Shown here in pieces: positions 10,334-63,250 of a stretch of 64,000 nucleotides of DNA. A model generated the notes under the pieces. That model worked only from the letters and a program-made list of their open reading frames with translations, had not been told where the DNA came from and ran no database searches. Source of the DNA: an uncultured Candidatus Saccharibacteria bacterium (GTDB lineage: Bacteria; Patescibacteriota; Minisyncoccia; UBA6257; UBA9933). Location: the NCBI GenBank assembly GCA_964642155.1, contig CAZXNT010000002.1, forward strand, positions 65,801 through 129,800, in the 5' to 3' direction. Within the stretch, counting starts at the first letter, position 1. Every line of letters begins with the position of its first letter. Both the position numbers and the translations under genes were made by a program.

Positions 10334-10724
10334 AATGGATATATCTTTTAAAAAAATTAAATCAATACCCAAAGAAAAGAAACGAGACGCTTTGTATATG
10401 GCGGCAACACTTGTTGTTATTATTTTAATAATCGGTATTTTTGTTTTTTCTTTAAATATCGTTATACGGGCGATTGACGCGGCTTTTGTAATCGGCGGAG
10501 AAGATGTCTCTTCGGAAATTTTATCGTTTAATTTGGACGATTTTGTTAAAATTGCTTTACGGTTAGGGATTAGTTTTAATCCGTCTGAAACACCTAAGGA
10601 AAACATTACTTCTGTTGTTCCGGTTGTTGAACAGCCGATTATTATTTCTCCGCCTCAGCCAACATTAACAGAGGAATCTGTTTCAACGTCAACTGAGGGT
10701 GTTTCCACCACTACGCCGATATAA
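10311..10724 (+). CDS. small membrane protein with Ser/Thr/Pro-rich C-terminus, hypothetical
   Basis: Likely real start is the MDISFKK methionine near 10335. One TM helix. Last gene of the pilus-like operon. Confidence 0.3.
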   Translation: MGKFLLNKMDISFKKIKSIPKEKKRDALYMAATLVVIILIIGIFVFSLNIVIRAIDAAFVIGGEDVSSEILSFNLDDFVKIALRLGISFNPSETPKENITSVVPVVEQPIIISPPQPTLTEESVSTSTEGVSTTTPI

Positions 10725-10795
10725 TTTTCGGGCTGCTGGGAATTGAACCCAGTCCTCGTCGCCTGCGGCGCCAGTGAATGCTTTTAGTATTCCCG

Positions 10796-10893
10796 TTTAA
10801 ATTCTTTTTCGGGACGCCGAGAATCGAACTCGGACTTCGTGTTCCCAAAACACGTATACTACCACTATATTACGTCCCGAAAAAGAATTTAAA
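10796..10893. repeat. perfect 14-nt inverted repeat (TTTAAATTCTTTTT / AAAAAGAATTTAAA) immediately flanking tRNA-Pro
   Basis: Arms at 10796-10809 and 10880-10893. The stem extends coaxially from the tRNA-Pro acceptor stem. Confidence 0.8.
10809..10879 (-). tRNA. tRNA-Pro (anticodon TGG)
   Basis: Cloverleaf on the minus strand. Acceptor CGGGACG/CGTCCCG. D-loop AGTGGTA. Anticodon stem CGTGT/ACACG with loop TTTGGGA. T-arm CCGAG-TTCGATT-CTCGG. No CCA encoded. Confidence 0.85.
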
Positions 10894-11010
10894 CCCTAAA
10901 ACACGTATACTGCCGGTATACTACAGCCCGTTAATAAAAAGTATTTTATCACCGCGTTTCTTTACTTACAAGGAGTTTTTTGGTTAAATATGCATTAGTA
11001 AAATAAATTT

Positions 11011-11082
11011 GCCCCCATAGCTCAATGGATAGAGCAGTGCTCTTCTAAGGCATTGATGTGGGTTCGATTCCTGCTGGGGGCA
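11011..11082 (+). tRNA. tRNA-Arg (anticodon TCT)
   Basis: Acceptor GCCCCCA/TGGGGGC. D-arm GCTC-AATGGAT-AGAGC. Anticodon loop CTTCTAA. T-arm GTGGG-TTCGATT-CCTGC. Confidence 0.85.
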
Positions 11083-11136
11083 TAATAAAGATTGAAAAAA
11101 ATATAAGTTTTGTTATGATATAAAAAATTTAATAAT

Positions 11137-11147
11137 GCCGCGGTAGC
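11137..11147 (+). pseudogene. 11-nt fragment identical to the 5' end of the downstream tRNA-Phe (GCCGCGGTAGC), abutting a hairpin repeat
   Basis: Exact match to the tRNA-Phe acceptor/D-stem start. The tRNA-like sequence is disrupted beyond that point. Confidence 0.3.
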
Positions 11148-11199
11148 CCCGACGCAAGGTCGGGGCTCCGACCTCCGACGTAAAGTCGGAGCGTCGGAG
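11147..11199. repeat. tandem GC hairpin repeat, family B (CCCCGAC-GCAAG-GTCGGGG then nested CTCCGAC..TCCGACGTAAAGTCGGA..GTCGGAG)
   Basis: Perfect palindromes. The same hairpin pair recurs at 16317-16355 and 41016-41054. Confidence 0.8.
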
Positions 11200-11230
11200 C
11201 TCAATGTAGTTAAGAATTCAAAATAACTAT

Positions 11231-11497
11231 ATGTCTTATGTTTATATTTTAGAAAGTATAAAAGATGGTAGATATTATATTGGGAGTACTATTGATTTAA
11301 AAAAACGATTTTTGCATCATAAAAGTGGCGGAACACCTTCTACTAAAAGATTTGGAGAAATAAAATTAATTTTTAGTCAAGAATTTAATACATTAAAAGA
11401 AGCAAGATATATTGAGAGACGATTAAAGAAATTTAAAAGAAAAGATTATTTAGAAAAGATAATAAACGACGGTTTTATAAAAATTAAATATAAATAA
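11231..11497 (+). CDS. GIY-YIG nuclease superfamily protein (small stand-alone, UPF0213/Slx1-like)
   Basis: YVYILES..DGRYYIGSTIDLKKRFLHH matches the GIY-(x10)-YIG motif with a conserved Arg. 88 aa. Confidence 0.7.
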   Translation: MSYVYILESIKDGRYYIGSTIDLKKRFLHHKSGGTPSTKRFGEIKLIFSQEFNTLKEARYIERRLKKFKRKDYLEKIINDGFIKIKYK

Positions 11498-11498
11498 C

Positions 11499-11570
11499 GC
11501 CGCGGTAGCTCAGTGGTGGAGCGCATCCCTGAAGAGGATGGCGTCGGGGGTTCGATTCCCTCCCGCGGCA
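11499..11570 (+). tRNA. tRNA-Phe (anticodon GAA)
   Basis: Acceptor GCCGCGG/CCGCGGC. D-arm AGCTCAGTGGTGGAGC. Anticodon stem CATCC/GGATG with loop CTGAAGA. T-arm GGGGG-TTCGATT-CCCTC. Confidence 0.9.
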
Positions 11571-11648
11571 CACGAACGAACCATATTTTAATTTTGCTTG
11601 CACTGAGCGAAGTCGAAGTGGGGGAAGAAAATTTTTTAACCACATAAT

Positions 11649-12650
11649 ATGAATACAAAGGGATTTATAAATATTATTTTAATTATCATTATAGCGGTTT
11701 TAATTAGTACGGCAGGTTATTTCATTTTTATTAGAAAATCAGAAGTCCCGATAGAAAAGAATATTATTCCTGATTCTTCTGATTTTTCTCCGGAAAATCC
11801 TCATTCTACTACAACTTCAGTTGTGGCTGATAGTTACGGAAAAGACGTCTTAATAGATGCGGGGGGTTTTAAATTTTCAATAAGAAAAGTCAGTCCTCCT
11901 AAATTTGGTCCGGAGTATACATTAGAAATTGAAACAATGGCTTCTTCTTCGGCCGACTATTTAAACAGAAAAGCATATATTGAATATTATGAGCGTGATT
12001 TAGGTATCAATTCGGATGGTAGGAATATAGTGGACATTGAAACATACCTTGTGTTTGAATATAAAACCGAGTACGGTATCTCAAAAGATTATTTTTACCT
12101 TCATGACAATTTTCCTAGATACATAAGTCGGCTTTTTTTTAGCCTCGATGGAAAAGATCTGTTTCTTACTTTAGATAGCAGTAAGCATAATTATTACGCA
12201 CAGAGCGTGATTCACTTTCAATTCACATCAGGGACCATTATACATGTATATAGTGAAATTTTATGTAGTACGGGTCTCGTCGAAGGCGAACTAATTGGTA
12301 ATATCGGAAAAAGCAATTTGGCGGTTTATATTGAAAAATCACAGGAATATAAAGATTTTCTAAAGACGAAGGATCTCGAATGCTACTATCCTTTTGATGA
12401 ATATGTCGCAGTAGATCCAATTGAAAATCGCGCCTGTCTAAATTCGCTTGAAAAATATTCTGACGATGGTGATTCCGTTTGGCTCTTAAACCTTCAGACA
12501 AGCGAAAGAAAGCAACTCTATAAAAATCTAGAGAACCCCAGTGAATTATGCAGAAATAAGAAACGGGTAGTTAAAAGTGCAGAATGGACAGACTCCGGTA
12601 AGATAAAAATTACAACAACGGATCGAGAATTTCTTGTTAGTCAATTTTAA
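11649..12650 (+). CDS. hypothetical membrane-anchored or secreted protein
   Basis: 333 aa. N-terminal TM or signal anchor. No recognisable domain. Confidence 0.4.
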   Translation: MNTKGFINIILIIIIAVLISTAGYFIFIRKSEVPIEKNIIPDSSDFSPENPHSTTTSVVADSYGKDVLIDAGGFKFSIRKVSPPKFGPEYTLEIETMASSSADYLNRKAYIEYYERDLGINSDGRNIVDIETYLVFEYKTEYGISKDYFYLHDNFPRYISRLFFSLDGKDLFLTLDSSKHNYYAQSVIHFQFTSGTIIHVYSEILCSTGLVEGELIGNIGKSNLAVYIEKSQEYKDFLKTKDLECYYPFDEYVAVDPIENRACLNSLEKYSDDGDSVWLLNLQTSERKQLYKNLENPSELCRNKKRVVKSAEWTDSGKIKITTTDREFLVSQF

Positions 12651-15214: not shown

Positions 15215-15302
15215 TAATTCAGAATTAAGAATTAAGAAAAAAATTAAACCGCTAATTCTGAATTTATAATTCTGAATTTTGAATTAGCGAGCGAAGCGAG
15301 CT
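15215..15302. repeat. family A inverted-repeat element (GAATTMAGAATT units) ending exactly at the HIT gene ATG
   Basis: Sequence ..TTCAGAATTAAGAATTAAG..AATTCTGAATTTATAATTCTGAATTTTGAATTAGCGAGCGAAGCGAGCT-ATG. Its tail matches the one at 31611-31630. Confidence 0.75.
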
Positions 15303-19122: not shown

Positions 19123-19544
19123 TGAAAGATTATTAATAAAATGACAATGCTAAAAAACATATCAAGCGGATGAAGACTTCGGCAAGTTTTTTTATTGTCT
19201 TCACCCCGCTTTCAAGCGGGATTTTTATTTTTTATGTCAACTAAAGCTTTGTTTTTTGAAAAAGTTTCAGTTGGTGTGAAAATCAGAATTTGTTGGTTGG
19301 TTAGTTTTTTAAAAATTGAATACAGGAAAATAAAAATAAAAGTAAAGTTATCCAACTTCTTGAATTCTGAATTTCAAGAAGATTTATTTAAGGGCGTATG
19401 GTGGATGCCTTGACATCAAACAGCGATGAAGGACGTGGCGTGGCTGCGATAAGCTTCGGGGAGGCGCTTAGCAACCTTTGATCCGAAGATTTCCGAATGG
19501 GGAAACCCTGCGCTGAAAACCAGCGTAAGCGCTGCTTTTCAGCG

Positions 19545-19628
19545 AATTTAGGATTACAAATTAAGAATTTAGAATTACGGAAAAATTATTTTTTAATTCT
19601 GCATTCTGCATTCTGAATTTTGAATTCG
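19545..19628. repeat. family A inverted-repeat element inserted in a 23S rRNA 5'-domain helix tip
   Basis: AGCGAATTTAGGATTACAAATTAAGAATTTAGAATTACGG..AATTCTGCATTCTGCATTCTGAATTTTGAATTCGCT. Perfect terminal inverted repeat AGCGAATT/AATTCGCT. Confidence 0.75.
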
Positions 19629-20029
19629 CTGCAAAGCAGCGTGGCTTACCCGCTGAAGTGAAACATCTCATTAAGCGGAGGAACAGAGAATAATAATTTA
19701 TTCCCCTAGTAGCGGCGAGTGAAAAGGGAGGAGCCTAAACTTATAAAAAAATTCGCAAGAAAATTTTTATAAGGGTTGCAAGACAGAGACGCTCTTTTGC
19801 TTTTCGCGAAGTCCTGAACTTATTGAAGGATTTCGCGATTTGTGAAAGGTGGAAGAGTTACAAATTCTTTGGTTAGCCAAATTAGCTGGAAAGCTGAACC
19901 ATAGCGGGTGATAGTCCCGTAGGCGAAAACCGAAGAACTCTTTAGTTTTTGATCTTAAGTACCTCGATGACAGGATGCTTCGAGGGAATCATCCGGCACT
20001 ATCCGGAAAGGCTAAATATGTTTGATGAT

Positions 20030-22233: not shown

Positions 22234-22957
22234 AAGAAATTGCTACTTCGCGGAGTAATCCGCGATGACAATTTGGCTAATAACGGTGAAGTCTTAATAT
22301 TTGATTATCATAATCGGTCTGAATGATAATTTACTTGAGGACCAAGAAATGTTAAGATAATACCGTGGGAAGTCAATCTAAAATAAATTTAGCATATATC
22401 GCTGGTTTTCTTGATGGCGATGGAAGTCTGATGCTCCAAATTAAAAAACGGAAAGATAGCAATAAATCGTATAGATTTATGGCTACTATTTGTTTTTATC
22501 AGGATTCGCGGCATGAAAAACCGCTTTTCTGGATACAAAAAGTTTTAAACATCGGATATTTATCTAAAAGAAAAGATGGCATAAGTGAATTAAGAATCAA
22601 TGGTTTTAAACAAATCGAAAAAATTCTTAATAATTTATCACCATTTATTAAATTTAAGAAAATTCAAGCGAAAATTCTTTTAAAGTCTGTAATTTTTCTT
22701 CAAAAATCTGATTTAAAAGAAAAAGATTTGAGGATATTAGTAAATAATATTATTCAAATTCAATCTGAGAATTATGTTTCTAAGAAAAAGCGGACAAAAG
22801 AAGAATTGTTTAAAATTTTAGGTTTGACCCCGTAACGACTGAGTCTAAAAAAGACAAGATAGGAATTTTAAAATTTCTATAATATGCCGATATCCAATCC
22901 CGCCATGGCGGGAGGATAAAGATATAGTCTACACACATAGTGATATGTGATTATGTG
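22234..22957 (+). mobile_element. intron in 23S rRNA (group I-type inferred) carrying a LAGLIDADG homing endonuclease ORF
   Basis: Exon junction rebuilds the conserved CCUAGU|ACGAGAGGACC. 5' exon ends in U and the insert ends in G. The HE ORF is internal. Confidence 0.7.
22365..22835 (+). CDS. LAGLIDADG homing endonuclease (single-motif, homodimer type)
   Basis: LAYIAGFLDGDGSL motif near the N-terminus. 156 aa, I-CreI-like size. Confidence 0.85.
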   Translation: MGSQSKINLAYIAGFLDGDGSLMLQIKKRKDSNKSYRFMATICFYQDSRHEKPLFWIQKVLNIGYLSKRKDGISELRINGFKQIEKILNNLSPFIKFKKIQAKILLKSVIFLQKSDLKEKDLRILVNNIIQIQSENYVSKKKRTKEELFKILGLTP

Positions 22958-31509: not shown

Positions 31510-31540
31510 TAAATTTTTATTATTAAAATTTATTAAATCT

Positions 31541-31630
31541 TAATTTAGAATTAAGAATGCAGAATTAAGAATTAAATATAAAATTCTTAATTCTTAATTT
31601 GTAATTCTGAATTAGCGAGTGAAACGAGCT
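31541..31630. repeat. family A inverted-repeat element in the rplK leader; its tail supplies an in-frame GTG and ends at the rplK ATG
   Basis: GAATTAAGAATGCAGAATTAAGAATT-AAATATAAA-ATTCTTAATTCTTAATT..AATTCTGAATTAGCGAGTGAAACGAGCT-ATG. The tail matches 15278-15302. Confidence 0.75.
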
Positions 31631-41360: not shown

Positions 41361-44886
<3,526 letters not shown>

Positions 44887-51369: not shown

Positions 51370-51444
51370 TCCGCAGTAGCTCAGTGGTAGAGCGGTCGCC
51401 TGTTAAGCGATTGGTCGTAGGTTCGAATCCTACCTGCGGAGCCA
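51370..51444 (+). tRNA. tRNA-Asn (anticodon GTT), CCA encoded
   Basis: TCCGCAG-TA-GCTCAGTGGTAGAGC.. Anticodon loop CTGTTAA. T-arm GTAGGTTCGAATCCTAC. Ends CTGCGGAGCCA. Confidence 0.9.
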
Positions 51445-57534: not shown

Positions 57535-58518
57535 ATGAAAAAAGATAATTTTCAAAAAGGCGAAATAGTGATTTACCAAGCGTCATCAGGCACCATTGAA
57601 TTTCGCGGCGATTGGGAAAAAGAAACGATTTGGGCAACACAGGCAGAAATAGCTCGGGCTTTTGATGTTACGCCACAAAACATTACGATTCATCTGCACA
57701 ATATATTTAAAGACGACGAACTTAATAAGGGGTCAACTTGTAAAGAATCCTTACAAGTTCAGAAAGAAGGCAAAAGGGAAATTGGGCGAAAGATGAAGCT
57801 GTATAATCTTGATGTCATTATTGCCATTGGTTATCGTATTAATTCCGTTGTTGGTACAAAATTTCGTCAATGGGCCACAAAGACCTTACGTGAGCATATT
57901 ACTAAGGGCTATACCATAAATCGCAAACGCATTGCGCAAAATTATAACGCGTTTATGAAAGCAGTCGCCGATATTCAGACGCTCCTGCCGAAACATATTA
58001 CTCTTGATCCAAAGACAGTTCTTGAACTCATTAAAGAATTCGCCAGCACTTGGGTTTCGCTTGACGCTTACGATAAAGAAACGCTTGAGGTTGTCGGAAC
58101 AACTAAGAAAGCGGTCAAGTTAATTGGGAAAGAACTGACCGGCGCGATAGAGAACCTTCGAGCCGAACTGATTAAAAAAAGCGAGGCAACGGAATTGTTC
58201 GCCCAAGAAAGACAATTTGGAAATATCGAAGATATTGCGGGGAATGTTATGCAATCATTCGGAGGCAAACCGCTTTATCCGAGCGTGGAAGAAAAAGCTG
58301 CGCATCTTTTGTATTTTATGGTGAAGAATCATCCCTTCACTGACGGCAATAAACGCTCCGGCGCTTTTGCCTTTGTTTGGTTTCTACGTAAATATCGCGC
58401 TAAAGAAAACCGCAATATTAATCCAGCGAGTTTAACCGCCCTTACACTTCTTATCGCCGAAAGTAATCCCCAAAAAAAAGAACAAATGGTAGCGTTGGTA
58501 ACGCAATTACTTAAATAA
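57535..58518 (+). CDS. RhuM-family protein with a C-terminal Doc/Fic-type domain
   Basis: N-terminal RhuM-like region (IEFRGDWEKETIWATQAEIARAF). C-terminal HPFTDGNKRSGAF, a Doc-type HxFx(D)GNKR motif. Confidence 0.7.
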   Translation: MKKDNFQKGEIVIYQASSGTIEFRGDWEKETIWATQAEIARAFDVTPQNITIHLHNIFKDDELNKGSTCKESLQVQKEGKREIGRKMKLYNLDVIIAIGYRINSVVGTKFRQWATKTLREHITKGYTINRKRIAQNYNAFMKAVADIQTLLPKHITLDPKTVLELIKEFASTWVSLDAYDKETLEVVGTTKKAVKLIGKELTGAIENLRAELIKKSEATELFAQERQFGNIEDIAGNVMQSFGGKPLYPSVEEKAAHLLYFMVKNHPFTDGNKRSGAFAFVWFLRKYRAKENRNINPASLTALTLLIAESNPQKKEQMVALVTQLLK

Positions 58519-58591
58519 TAATTACACTAACCCAATCCCGCGAAGCAAAAATCATCTATCAAAAACTGTTGAAAATTGATAAAATAAAACT

Positions 58592-59428
58592 ATGAACAAT
58601 AAAAAACAAATTTCAATTTTTGAAGGCAAACAAATCCGTCGTCACTGGGACGAGGAAAAAGAATTATGGCATTTTGCCGTTATGGATGTGGTGGAAATCT
58701 TGGCGCAAACCGATAGACCAAGAAAATATTGGAATGATTTAAAAACCAAGTTAAAAGCGGAGGGCAGCGAGGTGTCCGAAAAAATCGGACAACTGAAAAT
58801 GCGAGCTTCTGACGGCAAATTTTACCTTACCGATACGGCAGACACGGAAACGATGTTTCGTATTATTCAATCCATTCCTTCGCCTAAAGCCGAACCGTTT
58901 AAGCTCTGGCTGGCTCGGGTGGGTTATGAGAGAGTGGAGGAAACCGAAGATCCGGAAAAAGCCATCCAAAGAGCGTTGGCGACTTATCTCAAAAAAGGAT
59001 ATTCTAAAAATTGGGTTGACCTGCGACTAAAAAGCATTGAAATCAGAAAAGATTTAACCAATGAATGGGACGAGCGAGGCGTAAAAACAAATAATGAATT
59101 CGCCATTTTGACTGACGATATTTCTTTCGCTTGGGCGGGATTAAAAACCAAGGACTACAAAAAGCATAAAGATTTGAAAAAAGAAAATCTGCGGGACAAT
59201 ATGAATAACCTTGAATTAGTTTTGAATATGCTGGCGGAAACGGCAACCACGGAAATTTCCAAAAAACGGGAACCAAAAACTTTTCCGGAGAATAGAAAAG
59301 TAGCGCGCGAAGGCGGAGGCATTGCCGGCAACGCCAGAAAACAAATTGAGGCAAAAATAGGAAAACCGGTTATCAGTAAATTGAGTTTTAAAAAAATACA
59401 GGAGCAGAAAAAGCTAAACGAAAAATAA
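58592..59428 (+). CDS. DinD-like (DNA-damage-inducible protein D) with an N-terminal Bro-N domain
   Basis: ISIFEGKQIRRHWDEEKELWHFAVMDVVEIL is a Bro-N signature. Length and C-terminus are DinD-like. Confidence 0.7.
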   Translation: MNNKKQISIFEGKQIRRHWDEEKELWHFAVMDVVEILAQTDRPRKYWNDLKTKLKAEGSEVSEKIGQLKMRASDGKFYLTDTADTETMFRIIQSIPSPKAEPFKLWLARVGYERVEETEDPEKAIQRALATYLKKGYSKNWVDLRLKSIEIRKDLTNEWDERGVKTNNEFAILTDDISFAWAGLKTKDYKKHKDLKKENLRDNMNNLELVLNMLAETATTEISKKREPKTFPENRKVAREGGGIAGNARKQIEAKIGKPVISKLSFKKIQEQKKLNEK

Positions 59429-59432
59429 ATTT

Positions 59433-60116
59433 ATGACCAAATCATTTACTATTCACGATTTACCTAATGAAGAACGCCCGCGCGAACGATTAGTTAAATT
59501 TGGAGAACAAGCGCTCTCGGCCCAAGAATTATTACAACTTATTTTGGGGAGGGGAATTGCCGGTGAATCAGTGGTAATTACGGCGCAAAAATTATTATCG
59601 CAATTTGGCAGTCTTCAAAAATTATCCGAAGCAAGTATTGAGGAATTATCCTCAATTAAAGGAATTGGGCTGGCAAAAGCCACTCAAATAAAAGCCGCGT
59701 TTGAAATCGGCCGTCGGCTTTCCACACAGACCGCGCCATATAAAAGCAAAGAACTTACCGAACCCAAAAAGGTGTATCAATTAATAAAAAGCAAGCTCAA
59801 AGATTATCATAAAGAGCATTTTTATGTTATTGCTCTTAACAGCAGAAATCACTCCATCGCGGAAATTTCGGTCGGCTCTCTTAATGCCAGTATTGTTCAT
59901 CCGCGCGAAGTATTCGCGGAAGCCATCAAAAACAAAGCCGCCTCAGTTATATTCGTTCATAACCATCCATCAGGCGACTCCGAACCATCAGAAGACGATT
60001 TAATAATTACTAAAAAATTAGTTGAGTCCGGCAAGATTTTGGGGATTGAAATAGTTGACCATATTATTGTCGTTAAAGACAGTTTTTTTAGCTTTAAAGA
60101 TAAAGGATTAATATAA
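59433..60116 (+). CDS. radC: RadC-like JAB/MPN domain protein
   Basis: N-terminal HhH (ELSSIKGIGLAKATQI). JAMM motif HNHPSGDSEPSEDD. Confidence 0.8.
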   Translation: MTKSFTIHDLPNEERPRERLVKFGEQALSAQELLQLILGRGIAGESVVITAQKLLSQFGSLQKLSEASIEELSSIKGIGLAKATQIKAAFEIGRRLSTQTAPYKSKELTEPKKVYQLIKSKLKDYHKEHFYVIALNSRNHSIAEISVGSLNASIVHPREVFAEAIKNKAASVIFVHNHPSGDSEPSEDDLIITKKLVESGKILGIEIVDHIIVVKDSFFSFKDKGLI

Positions 60117-60188
60117 AATTATTTTATTTAAGAAGTATAATTAGAAATTTGACAATTATACATTAAGGCTATAAAGTATAATTACAGT

Positions 60189-61325
60189 ATGGAAAAGTCA
60201 ATATTTACAACAAATGCCGCGGGGAAAGTAATAAAAACCGAAAAGGGTTATTTTGCTTTTGCGCCTAATCCACTCCCGCCATTGTTGGAATTTAATAATG
60301 ATTTAGTTAACGCGCTTTCGCAGGCGGATATTGCGTTGGGGAAACTTGCGGGAGCCGCAAAACGTTTGCCTAACCCGCATCTTTTAATTCAGCCCTATTT
60401 AAAAAAAGAAGCGGTTTTAAGTTCAAAAATAGAAGGAACGCAGGCATCATTGTCTGATTTATTTGAGGCGGAAATTGGCGCCGTCGAAAAAACCGATGAC
60501 ATTAAAGAAGTAAATCAATATGTGAAAGCAATGGAATACGGATTGAAACGTATTAAAGATTTTCCTTTGAGCCTTCGTTTTGTTCGCGAACTCCATAAAA
60601 TTTTGATGGAGGGGGTTCGAGGCAAACACGCTGCGCCGGGAGAATTTAGAGTAAGTCAAAATTGGATTGGCAATCCCGGCTGTACATTGGAAGAAGCAAC
60701 TTTCGTCCCTCCCTCTGTCGCCACAATGAATGAATCTCTTAATGACTGGGAAAAATATTTGCATCAAGACAAAAAACTTCCGACTCTTATAGATTCTGCC
60801 TTAATTCATTATCAATTTGAGGCTATTCATCCGTTTCTTGATGGCAATGGAAGAATAGGGAGATTGTTTATAACTCTTCTTTTGGTGAATAAGGAAATTT
60901 TACCACTGCCTCTTTTATATTTAAGCGCCTTTTTTGAAAAATACAGAAGCGAGTATTACGAATACCTTATGCAGGTAAGCACAAAGGGATTGTGGAATGA
61001 TTGGTTGATTTTTTTCTTGCGCGGCGTGCGCGAACAAGCGACAGAAGCGTTGGCAAATGCTGATAAAATTTTGGCCCTACAAGAAGAATACGACAGAATT
61101 ATAAAAGAAAATCATTTGAGCGCCACAGTGAGCAGGGTGCTTGATTTATTGTTTCAAAATCCGTATATTACGATTCCTCGGGCCGCTTCCTTATTAAAAA
61201 CTACTTTTGTCACTGCCAAACGGTCGGTGCTCCACCTCGAAAAACTCGGTATTGTAAAAGAAATAAGCGGTAAAGAAAAAGGAAGAGTTTTTCTTGCCTC
61301 AAAATTATTAGATATTTTAAACTAA
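60189..61325 (+). CDS. Fic family protein with a C-terminal winged-helix domain
   Basis: Canonical Fic motif HPFLDGNGRIGRL. Inhibitory-helix-like SKIEGTQASL is present upstream. Confidence 0.8.
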   Translation: MEKSIFTTNAAGKVIKTEKGYFAFAPNPLPPLLEFNNDLVNALSQADIALGKLAGAAKRLPNPHLLIQPYLKKEAVLSSKIEGTQASLSDLFEAEIGAVEKTDDIKEVNQYVKAMEYGLKRIKDFPLSLRFVRELHKILMEGVRGKHAAPGEFRVSQNWIGNPGCTLEEATFVPPSVATMNESLNDWEKYLHQDKKLPTLIDSALIHYQFEAIHPFLDGNGRIGRLFITLLLVNKEILPLPLLYLSAFFEKYRSEYYEYLMQVSTKGLWNDWLIFFLRGVREQATEALANADKILALQEEYDRIIKENHLSATVSRVLDLLFQNPYITIPRAASLLKTTFVTAKRSVLHLEKLGIVKEISGKEKGRVFLASKLLDILN

Positions 61326-61366
61326 AAGATTTTAAGTTTTAAAAGAAAAATGTTAATATAAAAGAT

Positions 61367-63250
61367 ATGGTTCAATATAAAAAACTCAAAGAAGAAATTA
61401 TTACAGAACCAGAAAAAGGCAAATCAGGATTTGTTAAAGATGCTATTTCTAATGAGTGGATTAAAAAAACGCCCGAAGAAGAAGTGCGTCAAATTTATCT
61501 TCAAAAATTAATTAAAGAATATAAATATCCCAAAAGCCATATTAAAACTGAAGTAAAAATTCAATCCGGTCAAACTGAAACAAAAAAACGAGCCGATATT
61601 GTTGTTTTTAGGAATGATAAAAATTTTAGGCCCGAAGAAAACGCTTATATTATCGTTGAACTTAAAAAGCGAGACAGAAAAGACGGCGAAGAACAATTAA
61701 AAAGTTATATAAATAGCACTACCGCCGAATTTGCCGTTTGGTTTAATGGACAAGACATAGGTCATTTCCAGTACTCAAAAGATCCGAGAAAACATTTGGA
61801 AATTCCGGATATTCCCAAGTATGGCGAATCATTAAAAGATATCGGACTTTATAAAAAGAAGGATTTAGTGTTGGCAAGCGAATTGAAAACGGTTTTCGAA
61901 ACAATTCATAATCATATTTACGCCAATGAGGGCTATTTGAAAGATAAAGTTTTTAACGAGGTTTTAAAATTGATTTTTATTAAAATGGTTGATGAAAAAT
62001 CCGCAAGCGCTGATTGCGATTTTCGCATAACCGTTAAAGAAAAAGAAGAAATAGAAAACGACGACGGAACCAATTTCCGCAAAAGAATTGAAGATTTGTT
62101 TGAAAAAGTTAAAAAAGATTTTAGCGATATTTTTGATAGCACGGATAAATTAATTTTAAGAACTCAAACCTTGGCTTTTGCCGTTGGCCAACTTCAAAAA
62201 TATTCATTGATAAAAACAGAAGCCGATATAAAAGGTGTTGCTTTTCAAACTTTTGTTCATGCTCACTCAAGAGGCGAAAGAGGAGAATTTTTTACTCCTT
62301 ATCCAATTTTAAAAATGGCGGTAGAAATGTTATCGCCAAAAGATAATGAATCAATTTTAGACCCTGCCTGTGGCTCTGGCGGTTTTTTGGTTCAAACATT
62401 GAATTATATAAGGTGTATGTTTGAAAAAAATCGTCCCGATTTATCGGATTTGGAAATTATTAGGAATTTAACGTCTTACGCCATAAATTATATTCGTGGA
62501 ATTGATTTTAATCCCGATTTGGCGCGCGTGGCAAAAATGTATATGGTTTTATATGATGACGGCCACACCGGCATATTTGCGCATAATTCTTTAAATAGTT
62601 TCCAAAAAATTTACGATATTTCTAATCATAAAATTAAAGAAGAATCATTTGATATTATAATAACCAATCCGCCATTTGGCACAAAAGGAAAAGTGACGGA
62701 TAAAAATATTTTAGATGATTTTGAAATGGGCCATAAATGGAAAAAAGACGAAGATAAATGGAAAAAATTATCAAAAATTGCGGCTGAAGACGGAAAAGGT
62801 GGCCAAGTGCCGGACATTCTTTTTATTAAACGTTGCTTGCAGTTTTTAAAAGATGGCGGAAGAATGGCAATTGTTTTACCGGATGGAGATTTAACAAATT
62901 CTTCGCTTGGCTATGTTCGGCAATGGCTCAAAGATAATGCCAGAATTTTAGCGGTTGTTTCTTTGCCGTCGGAAACTTTTATTCCTTATGGTGCTGGTGT
63001 TAAAGCATCGGTTTTGTTTTTACAAAAATTACCGAAAAAAGAGCTGGAAGCGTTAAAGAAAAAAGACTACCCGATTTTTATGGGAATTATTGAAAAAATC
63101 GGATATGACATTCGCGGCCGAGCGATTTATAAACGTAACGAAAAAGGCGAGATTATCAAAAAAGACGATAAACCAACAATTGATGAAGATGTAAGTTTAA
63201 TAATAGAAGAATTTAAAAAATTTAAAGAGAAATATAAGTTGGAGTTTTAG
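61367..63250 (+). CDS. fused PD-(D/E)xK nuclease (HsdR_N-like) plus gamma-class N6-adenine DNA methyltransferase; BcgI-A-like (Type IIB/IIG) restriction-modification subunit candidate
   Basis: N-terminal ADIVVF..IIVELKK (D..ExK). Motif I LDPACGSGGFL and motif IV IITNPPFG. 627 aa. Stop is 3 nt before the next ATG. Confidence 0.75.
   Translation: MVQYKKLKEEIITEPEKGKSGFVKDAISNEWIKKTPEEEVRQIYLQKLIKEYKYPKSHIKTEVKIQSGQTETKKRADIVVFRNDKNFRPEENAYIIVELKKRDRKDGEEQLKSYINSTTAEFAVWFNGQDIGHFQYSKDPRKHLEIPDIPKYGESLKDIGLYKKKDLVLASELKTVFETIHNHIYANEGYLKDKVFNEVLKLIFIKMVDEKSASADCDFRITVKEKEEIENDDGTNFRKRIEDLFEKVKKDFSDIFDSTDKLILRTQTLAFAVGQLQKYSLIKTEADIKGVAFQTFVHAHSRGERGEFFTPYPILKMAVEMLSPKDNESILDPACGSGGFLVQTLNYIRCMFEKNRPDLSDLEIIRNLTSYAINYIRGIDFNPDLARVAKMYMVLYDDGHTGIFAHNSLNSFQKIYDISNHKIKEESFDIIITNPPFGTKGKVTDKNILDDFEMGHKWKKDEDKWKKLSKIAAEDGKGGQVPDILFIKRCLQFLKDGGRMAIVLPDGDLTNSSLGYVRQWLKDNARILAVVSLPSETFIPYGAGVKASVLFLQKLPKKELEALKKKDYPIFMGIIEKIGYDIRGRAIYKRNEKGEIIKKDDKPTIDEDVSLIIEEFKKFKEKYKLEF

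Follow-up and report, generated by a model that had tools for sequence, protein, structure and literature searches.

In bacterial rRNA operons, the processing stems formed between leader and trailer are substrates of RNase III. Integrative elements that target tRNA genes (phages, islands and plasmids relying on tyrosine integrases) reportedly use anticodon-loop and T-loop sublocations, said to go back to Reiter in 1989 and Williams in 2002. In the tRNA gene cluster of phage T4, the free-standing GIY-YIG homing endonuclease SegB recognises a site with a conserved tRNA motif and drives co-inheritance of itself and of the tRNA genes next to it, the markers of the recipient being lost (PMC2330249). 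A model in which a mobile element disrupts a tRNA gene has been put forward for Caldiarchaeum subterraneum (PMC3293823), and group I introns are found in the tRNA anticodon loops of Patescibacteria, including position 35/36 (PMC13011429).

Whereas tRNA genes normally count among a genome's most stable sequences, here we describe fast-diverging tRNA alleles together with preserved nested intermediates, in a 64-kb stretch of DNA from a Patescibacteria lineage (hereafter the window) and in its relatives. We consider it likely that the insert found in a tRNA-Pro gene of the window belongs, without an ORF of its own, to a family of replacement-tRNA cassettes invading the cognate tRNA gene, probably via nuclease-triggered break repair. 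A literature search returned no published description of replacement-tRNA cassettes nested in cognate tRNA genes.

The locus shares features with each of the systems above. As with integrative elements, the target is a tRNA gene (often, for those elements, its dyad-symmetric anticodon stem-loop), the junction bears a short direct repeat and tRNA sequence is brought as compensation. Those elements, however, are kilobases long and encode an integrase, whereas the insert here has 100 bp, no ORF and inverted-repeat ends; and they carry only the displaced 3′ segment, rebuilding a hybrid tRNA at one end, whereas here a whole tRNA is carried and the two target halves stay broken and unjoined, unlike in an integrase-type element. 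SegB is matched in that a GIY-YIG gene lies among tRNA genes, and the tRNA-Phe module of the window and the tRNA-Asn modules of its relatives fit the same logic. But SegB belongs to a phage and our locus to a cellular genome, the nuclease here has 86-88 aa, is predicted from sequence and consists of the catalytic domain only, the incoming tRNA, flanked on both sides by inverted-repeat arms, sits within a cognate gene that is broken, and the tRNA-Pro cassette has no ORF at all. The case of Caldiarchaeum subterraneum also shows population heterogeneity at a single tRNA locus, and its order of a 5′ tRNA fragment, an inserted element and a complete tRNA of the same identity is close to the tRNA-Phe arrangement of the window (11137-11571); it differs in being archaeal, in its 1.8 kb element with a recombinase and its new tRNA with bulge-helix-bulge introns, and in having neither nesting between both halves nor a bracketing inverted repeat. 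The group I introns share the phylum and the target region (a tRNA-Arg insert described below also sits at 35/36), but our inserts are 100-107 nt long, comprise a tRNA plus flanks, give no covariance-model match and go with decay, not maintenance, of the host tRNA. Finally, as in rRNA operons, sequences flanking a mature stable RNA form a long perfect helix (here 21-22 bp including the acceptor stem), but this helix encloses a tRNA rather than an rRNA, is a putative RNase III substrate only and may be a DNA-level by-product.

A tRNA-Pro gene nested in a split tRNA-Pro gene

The minus strand at 10930-10728 comprises, in this order, the 5′ part of a tRNA, one inverted-repeat arm of 15 nt, a whole tRNA-Pro(UGG), the second arm and a 3′ tRNA part. 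A nested arrangement at 10729-10930 had been described in an earlier, sequence-only reading of the window, and all the features that it listed are present where it placed them. The parts are:

10943..10971, minus: promoter-like site TTGTAA, 17-nt spacer with TG, TAAAAT (consensus scan; conserved in L008, L013 and L031)
10895..10930, minus: outer tRNA-Pro(UGG) 5′ part, with CGGGCTG, D arm, CGTGT, loop TTT and left triplet copy (orthologous to the intact L012 gene)
10880..10894, minus: left inverted-repeat arm GTTTAAATTCTTTTT, abutting the inner acceptor stem (15-nt perfect repeat)
10809..10879, minus: inner complete tRNA-Pro(UGG) (ARAGORN; Rfam, 65.1 bits)
10795..10809, minus: right inverted-repeat arm AAAAAGAATTTAAAC, whose first A is the inner discriminator base (complementarity to the left arm)
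10790..10794, minus: outer gene resumes with the right GGG copy (positions 35-37), A38 and A39 (L012 alignment)
10777..10789, minus: hairpin insertion A, TACTAAAAGCATT, 13 nt, between outer positions 39 and 40
10774..10776, minus: CAC, outer anticodon-stem positions 40-42 (outer-gene reconstruction)
10758..10773, minus: hairpin insertion B, TGG CGCC GCA GGCG AC, 16 nt
10728..10757, minus: outer 3′ part, with G43, variable loop AGGA, T arm, CAGCCCG and A73

The promoter-like site lies just upstream of the outer 5′ part, which reads CGGGCTG TA GTAT ACCGGCA GTAT A CGTGT TTTAGG (10930-10895). The main insert has 100 bp (10795-10894) rather than the roughly 140 nt first estimated, and is followed by the two further hairpin insertions of 13 and 16 nt. 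It is bordered by a 3-bp direct repeat, GGG, the left copy of which is now AGG in the window (10895-10897) and is GGG in relatives. The repeat arms had been correctly described as perfect; their length is 15 nt, not 14 (GTTTAAATTCTTTTT/AAAAAGAATTTAAAC), and together with the inner acceptor stem they make up a 22-nt arm pair with 100% complementarity. The predicted fold of the whole 202 nt reaches -82.5 kcal/mol (z = -7.0 versus shuffles). ARAGORN and Rfam each call one complete tRNA-Pro(TGG) at 10809-10879, as had been proposed. The acceptor strands of the outer halves pair at 7/7 positions and show the compensatory differences from the inner acceptor stem at pairs 5-68 and 6-67 that had been pointed out; the inner and outer alleles differ in the D loop and T stem as well.

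The two halves had been taken for one gene interrupted by an insert bearing a functional tRNA, and this held, whereas the proposed Leu(UAG)-like identity did not. L012 has an uninterrupted version of the outer gene, a class-I tRNA-Pro(UGG) of 71 nt that shares both the acceptor stem, CGGGCTG/CAGCCCG, and the sequence downstream, AAAATTATAT(T/C)GGCGTAG. The supposed TAG anticodon reflects a G-to-A substitution in the left one of the two GGG copies (the loop is TTTGGG in L008, L009 and L031), and the supposed long variable arm is hairpin insertion B. Nor is the ACACG partner of the 5′ anticodon-stem strand missing: hairpins A and B split the outer 3′ strand into AA, CAC and G. With the three inserts deleted from the window, the acceptor, D, anticodon and T stems are perfectly paired in a complete cloverleaf, and TTT joined to GGGAA gives tRNA-Pro(UGG). 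ARAGORN called the window construct with one extra G retained tRNA-?(Leu or Pro) with an 8-nt loop, and called the outer-gene reconstruction of L008 tRNA-Pro(tgg), 71 nt. We conclude that the outer halves represent the tRNA-Pro(UGG) gene resident in this Patescibacteria lineage, once present as a single copy and now split in the anticodon loop, and that the two hairpin insertions in its 3′ anticodon-stem strand came later than the cassette.

From lineage to lineage, the outer genes are damaged in different ways: by G35A in the left copy of the triplet and three insertions in the window; a T-stem mismatch and a 69-nt insertion in the T loop in L008; a T stem pairing at only 2/5 positions in L031; a scrambled T arm in L019/L032; and loss of the 5′ anticodon-stem strand in L013. 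No outer copy gave an Rfam tRNA match. The outer gene thus looks like a decaying relic, judging from these sequences. Against this, its acceptor stem and D arm are still intact, as is, in the window, the T arm (CTGGG TTCAATT CCCAG), and given the intact stems the outer gene may have a role at the RNA level.

Such a role could be that of a functional interrupted tRNA, the inner tRNA and hairpins being intron-like segments excised either by a splicing endonuclease with a ligase or by RNase P/Z and then ligation, or the outer pieces forming a split tRNA. The insert interrupts the anticodon loop at the canonical 37/38 site or beside it, its removal gives the perfect cloverleaf, three arms of the window's outer gene are intact, and Patescibacteria do carry group I tRNA introns (PMC13011429). 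We nevertheless regard this explanation as extremely unlikely. No Intron_gpI match was found at E<=10 in 10600-11250, and the insert, at 100 nt, falls far below the length of a group I intron, for which we took a covariance-model match and a length of >= about 200 nt as the criterion. The minimum-free-energy fold lacks a bulge-helix-bulge (two 3-nt bulges, 4-bp helix), and at the junction helices of 7 bp and 22 bp are instead separated by a 3-nt/1-nt internal loop. ARAGORN in intron and low-threshold modes found no outer tRNA in 10401-11700, three separate excisions would be required, and in relatives the outer genes are broken (T stem, T-loop insertions, lost anticodon-stem strand) while an intact inner tRNA with the same anticodon is always there. 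These results also speak against the unusual tRNA intron listed by the sequence-only reading, and serve as a warning that an apparently split or intron-containing bacterial tRNA can be an insertion relic.

Several other structural assignments were rejected. A class-II tRNA, with hairpin A as anticodon arm and hairpin B as variable arm, conflicts with the class-I intact orthologue, and the hairpin A palindrome of L008 (12 bp, 3-nt loop) argues against an anticodon arm. A standard or permuted tmRNA was dismissed, since ARAGORN in tmRNA mode found none in 10401-11700, Rfam tmRNA models scored 12-14 bits against thresholds of 47, and the outer 3-70 pair is G-C where a tmRNA expects G3-U70. Brute-force joining of the halves at 2,109 splice-point pairs, with ARAGORN at a relaxed threshold, gave hundreds of inconsistent calls (Phe-AAA, Cys-GCA and others) and was uninformative. 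The site of hairpin A holds a 12-bp palindrome in L008/L031 and an inverted loop in L019, and that of hairpin B holds a different hairpin, AATTTTGC AAA GCAAAATT, in L008/L031. We rejected covariation of hairpins A and B as a sign of structured RNA, because these very close relatives differ by replacement of entire hairpins, by inversion of a loop (window versus L019) and by a palindrome made perfect; the differences are mutational churn, not compensatory substitution.

The nested structure is not an assembly artefact. The Logan assemblies SRR13723393, -94 and -96 match 10700-10960 exactly, and in the SRR13723397 assembly the span from the outer 5′ end motif to the outer 3′ one is likewise 205 nt. 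It is true that tRNA genes are repeats that break metagenome assemblies, and that two related contigs end inside the neighbouring tRNA-Arg. But with both junctions identical in three assemblies, the span preserved in a fourth and homologous nests assembled independently in other studies (L008/L009; L019/L011/L032; L013/L033/L034), we give practically no credence to a chimera or a collapsed strain mixture. A partial tandem duplication, also on the original list, cannot give the nested order, and the inner and outer alleles are different. Of the four explanations offered there, a tRNA-carrying mobile insertion fits best.

Empty and occupied sites in relatives

Among genus-level relatives, all of them metagenomic contigs, the tRNA-Pro locus is empty, singly nested (in three arm/cargo variants) or layered. 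The site is empty in L012 and filled in the window, L008, L031 and L013 (L012 and L031 rest on one assembly each). Cassettes of the same design occupy cognate tRNA genes in close relatives: three tRNA-Pro variants, one tRNA-Arg and one tRNA-Asn. In L010, a type B gene is interrupted at position 35/36 by a nested type A tRNA-Arg(UCU); the two types are highly divergent tRNA-Arg(UCU) alleles, differing at 20-23 of 72 nt. A deletion scan of 44 tRNAs in the loci, which misses the L008 and L013 nests owing to their T-loop insertions, revealed no nests beyond the window-type tRNA-Pro, the L010 tRNA-Arg and L019.

Between L008 and L031, 8/228 aligned flank bases differ, compared with 22/98 cassette bases (Fisher p = 3e-7). 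The island of divergence coincides with the cassette, which points to exchange of cassettes at an identical site. More generally, the active tRNA-Pro alleles differ at up to about one fifth of positions, though the neighbouring protein is 91-92% identical. Each locus has exactly one scoring tRNA-Pro (60-67 bits), and in the eight active inner alleles 168/168 pair cells are standard, with changes on both sides at 13 of the 21 pairs. The inner tRNA-Pro, always intact and covarying, is presumably the working gene.

The flanks of nested tRNAs stand apart from those of other tRNAs: perfect runs extend over 11-15 nt at nested tRNA-Pro and tRNA-Asn versus 4-9 nt at un-nested tRNAs. The nested tRNA-Arg of L010 has an imperfect repeat only (longest perfect run, 6 nt). 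Apart from these imperfect arms, all of about 40 arm pairs are Watson-Crick with no G-U, suggesting copying at the DNA level rather than selection at the RNA level. The right arm in L037 is a copy of the coding sequence that forms the left arm.

The GGG duplication with flanking inverted repeats of 14-15 nt is found in the cassettes of the window, L008 and L031 (where 13/14 positions are paired). Two different host tRNAs carry the second arm type, IR2, and the junctions are identical in both. A duplication is absent from the IR2 and tRNA-Arg cassettes, and junction signatures vary by event (3-bp duplication, 4-bp loss or clean insertion), which counts against our reading of the inserts as cassettes, as does the finding that the repeat arms have no second copy elsewhere in the 64-kb window. 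A motif of the GC-rich terminus occurred elsewhere in the window at chance level only. No transposase, integrase, EndA or RtcB was found among the larger ORFs of the window (Pfam scan, 64 kb), and scans of viral contigs for arm plus acceptor and for cassette tRNA alleles gave no copy, only chance hits without a tRNA or nothing, a further point against our reading.

These data bear on a further explanation, a miniature inverted-repeat transposable element whose arms are terminal inverted repeats for a transposase encoded elsewhere, whose GGG is a 3-bp target-site duplication and whose cargo is the tRNA. The terminal repeats with their 3-bp direct repeat in the window, L008 and L031, and the small, ORF-less insert, would suit such an element, and the GC-rich T-loop insert of L008 has termini like the arms of the L010 tRNA-Arg cassette. 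Nevertheless, the arms occur once only in 64 kb with no transposase among the scanned ORFs, the target-site duplication is missing from the IR2 and tRNA-Arg cassettes, and one arm of L037 is coding sequence; moreover, arms of cassettes at the same site are wholly different (IR1 versus IR3), which is unexpected for one transposase. We consider such an element very unlikely.

GIY-YIG modules at tRNA-Phe and tRNA-Asn

About 350 bp from the outer tRNA-Pro gene, beyond tRNA-Arg, the window contains a GIY-YIG nuclease ORF associated with tRNA-Phe:

11137-11147, plus: tRNA-Phe 5′ remnant, first 11 nt, GCCGCGGTAGC (the intact tRNA-Phe of L008 starts at the homologous point)
11148-11200, plus: GC-rich double hairpins after the tRNA-Phe remnant
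11231..11497, plus: 88-aa GIY-YIG nuclease ORF (Pfam PF01541, E = 5.8e-15)
11499..11571, plus: complete tRNA-Phe(GAA) (ARAGORN, Rfam)

The remnant region (11137..11200), 200 bp from the nested tRNA-Pro, is a related second case, and the ORF ends 1 nt upstream of the complete tRNA-Phe. Between tRNA-Arg and tRNA-Phe, the GIY-YIG ORF is absent in L008, L013, L031 and L004, and the ORFs beyond tRNA-Phe in L008 and L004 gave no GIY-YIG match. Relatives have a homologue, 74% identical to P0027, located 2 nt upstream of a nested tRNA-Asn: ten contigs carry, inside a split tRNA-Asn, a GIY-YIG ORF followed by a 21-nt perfect helix around tRNA-Asn. This site is empty in the window and filled in L035-L044. 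Empty and occupied alleles thus coexist among close relatives for tRNA-Pro and tRNA-Asn, and L008 lacks the GIY-YIG module at tRNA-Phe.

A nuclease gene is therefore inside or adjacent to the mobile segment in the tRNA-Phe and tRNA-Asn modules, and not in the tRNA-Pro cassette. Several observations here count against our reading. The tRNA-Pro cassettes contain no ORF in any lineage, no nuclease was tied to the anticodon-loop site, the cassettes with GIY-YIG are located in the D arm instead, and the 86-88-aa proteins, being the catalytic domain only, are putative homing enzymes at most.

Proposed expression and turnover of the nested genes

The promoter-like site at 10943..10971 is probably the resident promoter, now driving the inner tRNA. 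Transcription would most likely pass from it through the dead 5′ half, and the inner tRNA would be released from the 22-bp leader-trailer helix by the normal tRNA end-processing enzymes. We propose that the cassettes spread and are exchanged in a homing-like manner, by nuclease-triggered double-strand-break repair or gene conversion, the tRNA-Pro cassette being an ORF-less or trans-dependent member. The inverted repeat may have originated by snap-back copying at the acceptor stem or, alternatively, may have been kept since it clamps the inner tRNA away from the near-identical outer halves. The net effect would be fast replacement of tRNA alleles in situ.

The main competitor of a cassette family is a one-off accident, in which a foreign tRNA-Pro fragment was captured at an anticodon-loop break by illegitimate recombination and survived by replacing the broken essential gene, with no dedicated mobility. 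Nested alleles would then have moved from strain to strain by ordinary homologous recombination, with the outer halves as homology arms, and the inverted repeat would have evolved afterwards as a leader-trailer helix aiding folding and processing of the inner tRNA. The heterogeneous junctions, the ORF-less tRNA-Pro cassettes and the arms that are single-copy in the window agree with such an accident; mosaic recombinants (L032) and possible layer loss (L013) show that homologous recombination is frequent, and the copied coding sequence in the right arm of L037 fits secondary evolution of pairing. However, a single genus-level clade shows the same architecture arising at four or more tRNA identities and sites, two unrelated cassettes sit at exactly one nucleotide position, IR2 junctions are identical in two different hosts, an ORF-bearing version exists, and the absence of G-U from the arm pairs (tRNA-Arg arms apart) points to copying of DNA. 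We therefore regard an accident as unlikely, and favour a family of replacement-tRNA cassettes.

If the insert is indeed such a cassette, it offers a concrete route for replacing essential single-copy tRNA genes in reduced genomes and represents a new type of mobile element, the cargo of which compensates the damage caused. It would also suggest a function for the minimal GIY-YIG proteins that are very common in Patescibacteria, and account for a kind of tRNA fragment and assembly break overlooked by standard annotation. More tentatively, and with some doubt, we suggest that Patescibacteria hold an undescribed class of selfish replacement-tRNA cassettes, comprising a complete tRNA gene between the arms of a snap-back inverted repeat, with or without a gene for a minimal GIY-YIG nuclease, which home into the cognate chromosomal tRNA gene, kill it and put their own allele in its place, leading to Russian-doll genes and unusually fast xenologous turnover of tRNAs that are ultra-conserved elsewhere. 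If these cassettes are selfish, the turnover is possibly an arms race over nuclease-sensitive tRNA gene sequences.

A short, AT-rich match hints, as a weak lead that is not established, at a deleted ORF behind the left arm of L031: this arm, GGG TTA AAA ATT TAG followed by 1 nt and the tRNA, resembles the ends of the GIY-YIG ORFs, which read G-F-I-K-I-stop followed by 1-2 nt and the tRNA.

The nested locus and the identity of its outer gene

The window, a low-GC Patescibacteria contig with 23S and 5S rRNA genes, numerous genes for aminoacyl-tRNA synthetases and a pilus-like operon, holds at 10930-10728 (minus strand) a complete tRNA-Pro(UGG) bracketed by inverted-repeat arms within the two halves of an outer tRNA gene. 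This layout had been described in the sequence-only reading; for ARAGORN and Rfam the inner tRNA is the sole call at the locus. Its parts are:

Start of 10930-10728, minus: outer 5' part, CGGGCTG TA GTAT ACCGGCA GTAT A CGTGT TTT AGG
Between outer 5' part and inner tRNA, minus: left inverted-repeat arm, GTTTAAATTCTTTTT
10809-10879, minus: inner complete tRNA-Pro(UGG), ARAGORN and Rfam, 65.1 bits
Directly after the inner tRNA, minus: right inverted-repeat arm, AAAAAGAATTTAAAC
After the right arm, minus: outer gene resumes with GGG AA, then small hairpin insertion TACTAAAAGCATT
Between hairpin insertions TACTAAAAGCATT and TGGCGCCGCAGGCGAC, minus: outer CAC
After hairpin TGGCGCCGCAGGCGAC, to 10728, minus: outer 3' part, G AGGA CTGGG TTCAATT CCCAG CAGCCCG A

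The arms are indeed a perfect inverted repeat extending the inner acceptor stem; they measure 15 nt rather than the 14 nt first read, and with that stem make a 22-nt arm pair that is 100% complementary. Folded with its insert, as had been proposed, the 202-nt RNA is predicted (-82.5 kcal/mol, z = -7.0) to form the acceptor stem, D arm and T arm of the outer gene, together with a single long helix capped by the inner tRNA.

An assembly chimera, suggested earlier, is excluded: 10700-10960 is matched exactly by three Logan assemblies (independent assemblies of separate sequencing runs), and a fourth shares the 205-nt span; the nested sequence is therefore real. An unusual tRNA intron, or a split tRNA, is unlikely. 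ARAGORN in intron mode made no intron call, a group I search gave no match, inspection of the fold revealed no bulge-helix-bulge motif, and the outer genes of relatives have decayed. Partial tandem duplication, also raised earlier, cannot yield the nested order. A tmRNA was excluded as well.

Syntenic loci of relatives were retrieved via the neighbouring 137-aa and 481-aa proteins. The latter is 91-92% identical among the window and loci L004, L008 and L011, and 72% to L010; the compared loci are close relatives. They are metagenomic contigs throughout, L012 and L031 each being a single assembly, and own-genome analysis covers the 64-kb window.

The outer halves had been taken for a Leu(UAG)-like tRNA. 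In L012 the same position instead holds an uninterrupted 71-nt tRNA-Pro(UGG) (66.5 bits), which shares the acceptor stem CGGGCTG/CAGCCCG with the outer halves and is followed by the same sequence as in the window. A GGG triplet stands on either side of the insert (the left copy being AGG in the window), and the outer loop is TTTGGG in L008, L009 and L031; the apparent TAG anticodon therefore reflects a G-to-A change in the left GGG copy. The ACACG partner of the outer 5' anticodon-stem strand, not found in the earlier reading, is present, cut into AA/CAC/G by the two small hairpin insertions. Removing all three inserts in silico leaves the acceptor, D, anticodon and T stems perfectly paired, and joining at TTT + GGGAA gives tRNA-Pro(UGG). 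ARAGORN calls the L008 outer reconstruction tRNA-Pro(tgg); a window construct with one extra G is called tRNA-?(Leu|Pro), its loop being 8 nt. Together these observations identify the outer gene as the resident class-I tRNA-Pro(UGG), as opposed to a Leu-like class-II tRNA.

Probable relics and working copies, and cassette exchange

A complete cognate tRNA has thus been inserted into a resident gene, and the outer gene decays. Every locus has one scoring tRNA-Pro, the innermost or plain copy (60-67 bits); among the eight scoring alleles 168/168 pair cells are standard, with both-side changes in 13/21 pairs. Damage to the outer copies is specific to each lineage: a mismatch in the T stem plus a GC-rich insert of 69 nt in the T loop in L008, 2/5 T-stem positions paired in L031, a scrambled T arm with a hairpin insert inside in L019/L032, and loss of the 5' anticodon-stem strand in L013. 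A conserved promoter-like site immediately precedes the outer 5' half, and the inner tRNA is probably transcribed through this dead half.

The two hairpin sites in the outer gene change by whole-hairpin replacement, loop inversion (GAAT-ACTAAAAGC-ATTC in the window vs GAAT-GCCTTAGT-ATTC in L019) and palindrome perfection, patterns other than compensatory substitution. The GC-rich T-loop inserts (minus strand; L008 6400-6470, 69 nt; L031 6030-6075, 36 nt after a 33-nt internal deletion) have termini, CCTGCCCGC...GCAGGCGGG, resembling the arm sequences in the tRNA-Arg cassette of L010.

Among relatives the tRNA-Pro locus occurs in at least six states:

Intact outer-type tRNA-Pro: L012
Intact inner-type tRNA-Pro: L004, L005, L006, L015, L018
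Window-type cassette: window, L008, L009
Different cassette at the exact same nucleotide position, arms GTTAAAAATTTAGT/ACCAAATTTTTAAC, 13/14 paired: L031
Third cassette, inserted after A26, arms (A)TCCCTCACCCTTT/AAAGGGTGAGGGA(T): L013, L033, L034
Layered, third cassette within the cargo of the first: L019, L011, L032

A transposase-driven miniature element is weakened as an explanation, as the arms are single-copy in the window, unrelated arms occupy the same site and a transposase is absent among the window ORFs scanned. The L031 cargo tRNA and the inner tRNA of the window differ at ~15/71 positions. Between L008 and L031, 8/228 aligned flank bases differ, vs 22/98 in the cassette (p = 3e-7); since a functional tRNA cannot outpace neutral surroundings, the cassette has been exchanged, at a fixed site.

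Empty/filled polymorphism is evident among these relatives, and nesting recurs at another tRNA gene. In L010 (6512-6690, plus strand) a window-type tRNA-Arg(UCU) is nested at position 35/36 of an other-type resident tRNA-Arg(UCU); the insert is 107 nt, with imperfect 10-nt arms (longest perfect run 6 nt), and its deletion restores a perfect outer cloverleaf. The two types differ at 20-23/72 positions, yet alternate at one syntenic site in close relatives. Perfect flanking inverted repeats span 11-15 nt at nested tRNA-Pro and tRNA-Asn genes, vs runs of 4-9 nt at un-nested tRNAs. Two independent assemblies of one strain, L001 and L002, end inside tRNA-Arg (window 11047 and 11059), a hint that the tRNA cluster varies between strains or contains repeats.

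GIY-YIG modules at tRNA-Phe and tRNA-Asn

The same nested architecture occurs with a GIY-YIG gene. A second case in the window lies ~350 bp from the outer tRNA-Pro gene, past tRNA-Arg, at 11137-11571 (plus strand):

11137-11147, plus: resident tRNA-Phe 5' remnant, first 11 nt
11148-11200, plus: GC-rich double hairpins, after the remnant
11231-11497, plus: 88-aa GIY-YIG ORF (PF01541)
1 nt after the ORF, within 11137-11571, plus: complete tRNA-Phe

In L008 an intact tRNA-Phe begins at the point homologous to the remnant start, and no GIY-YIG ORF lies between its tRNA-Arg and tRNA-Phe. The stretch 11137-11571 appears to be a tRNA replacement module that carries a nuclease. Proteins of this family occur widely in Patescibacteria (129 matches at E<1e-10). 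A 74% identical homologue, P0027, is present on at least 24 contigs and stops 2 nt short of a complete tRNA-Asn. A 21-nt perfect helix (14 nt of flank + 7 acceptor nt) encloses this tRNA, which sits in a split resident tRNA-Asn, with positions 1-11 upstream and the remainder downstream. This module occurs in L035-L044 (e.g. L037 2011-2605), flanked by a 53-nt direct repeat; the window has the empty site, an uninterrupted tRNA-Asn at 51370-51444. The left arm is the final codons of the GIY-YIG ORF, and the right arm must therefore be a copy of the left.

GC-rich double-hairpin units of ~40-60 nt recur at L037 2022-2064, 2440-2482 and 2495-2552, at window 11148-11200 and, following GTAGG, in the outer T stem of L038/L039. 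They always start with CCCGAC and directly follow GTAG(C/G) in D/T stems of dead tRNAs, which suggests a small site-specific hairpin element.

Possible routes of spread and other features of the window

Cassettes probably spread via break repair or gene conversion triggered by a nuclease, in which case the tRNA-Pro cassette would be an ORF-less or trans-dependent family member; the arms could originate from snap-back copying at the acceptor stem, and/or be kept because they clamp the RNA during folding or processing. Against nuclease-driven spread count the lack of an ORF in any tRNA-Pro cassette examined, the differing target sites (anticodon loop vs D arm) and the heterogeneous junctions between events. 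The main alternative is a one-off illegitimate capture, then spread by homologous recombination.

tRNA-targeting integrative elements, which restore their target, are among the closest known systems to nested tRNA cassettes. So are the GIY-YIG homing enzyme SegB of T4, which is encoded in a tRNA cluster and recognizes a tRNA motif (PMC2330249), and the model of tRNA disruption in Caldiarchaeum (PMC3293823). No account of a bacterial tRNA nested within its cognate tRNA emerged from full-text literature searches; a paper on Patescibacteria tRNA introns covers group I introns only (PMC13011429).

Elsewhere, the unusually long 23S-5S spacer (935 nt) holds a 156-aa LAGLIDADG homing-endonuclease ORF (22365-22835, plus strand) between the 23S end (22298) and 5S (23234); no 16S rRNA gene lies within the 64-kb window. 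Long AT-rich hairpins of heptamer-like repeats (AATTCTGAATT / AATTAAGAATT / GAATGCAGAAT) occur at 15216-15289, 19530-19641 (inside the Rfam-called 23S rRNA gene), 31534-31614 and 44383-44461. At 57535-63250, genes for Fic/DOC (two copies), RhuM, Bro-N and RadC cluster with a type I/IIG-like N6 DNA methylase bearing an HSDR_N domain, and the group probably represents a mobile or defence island.
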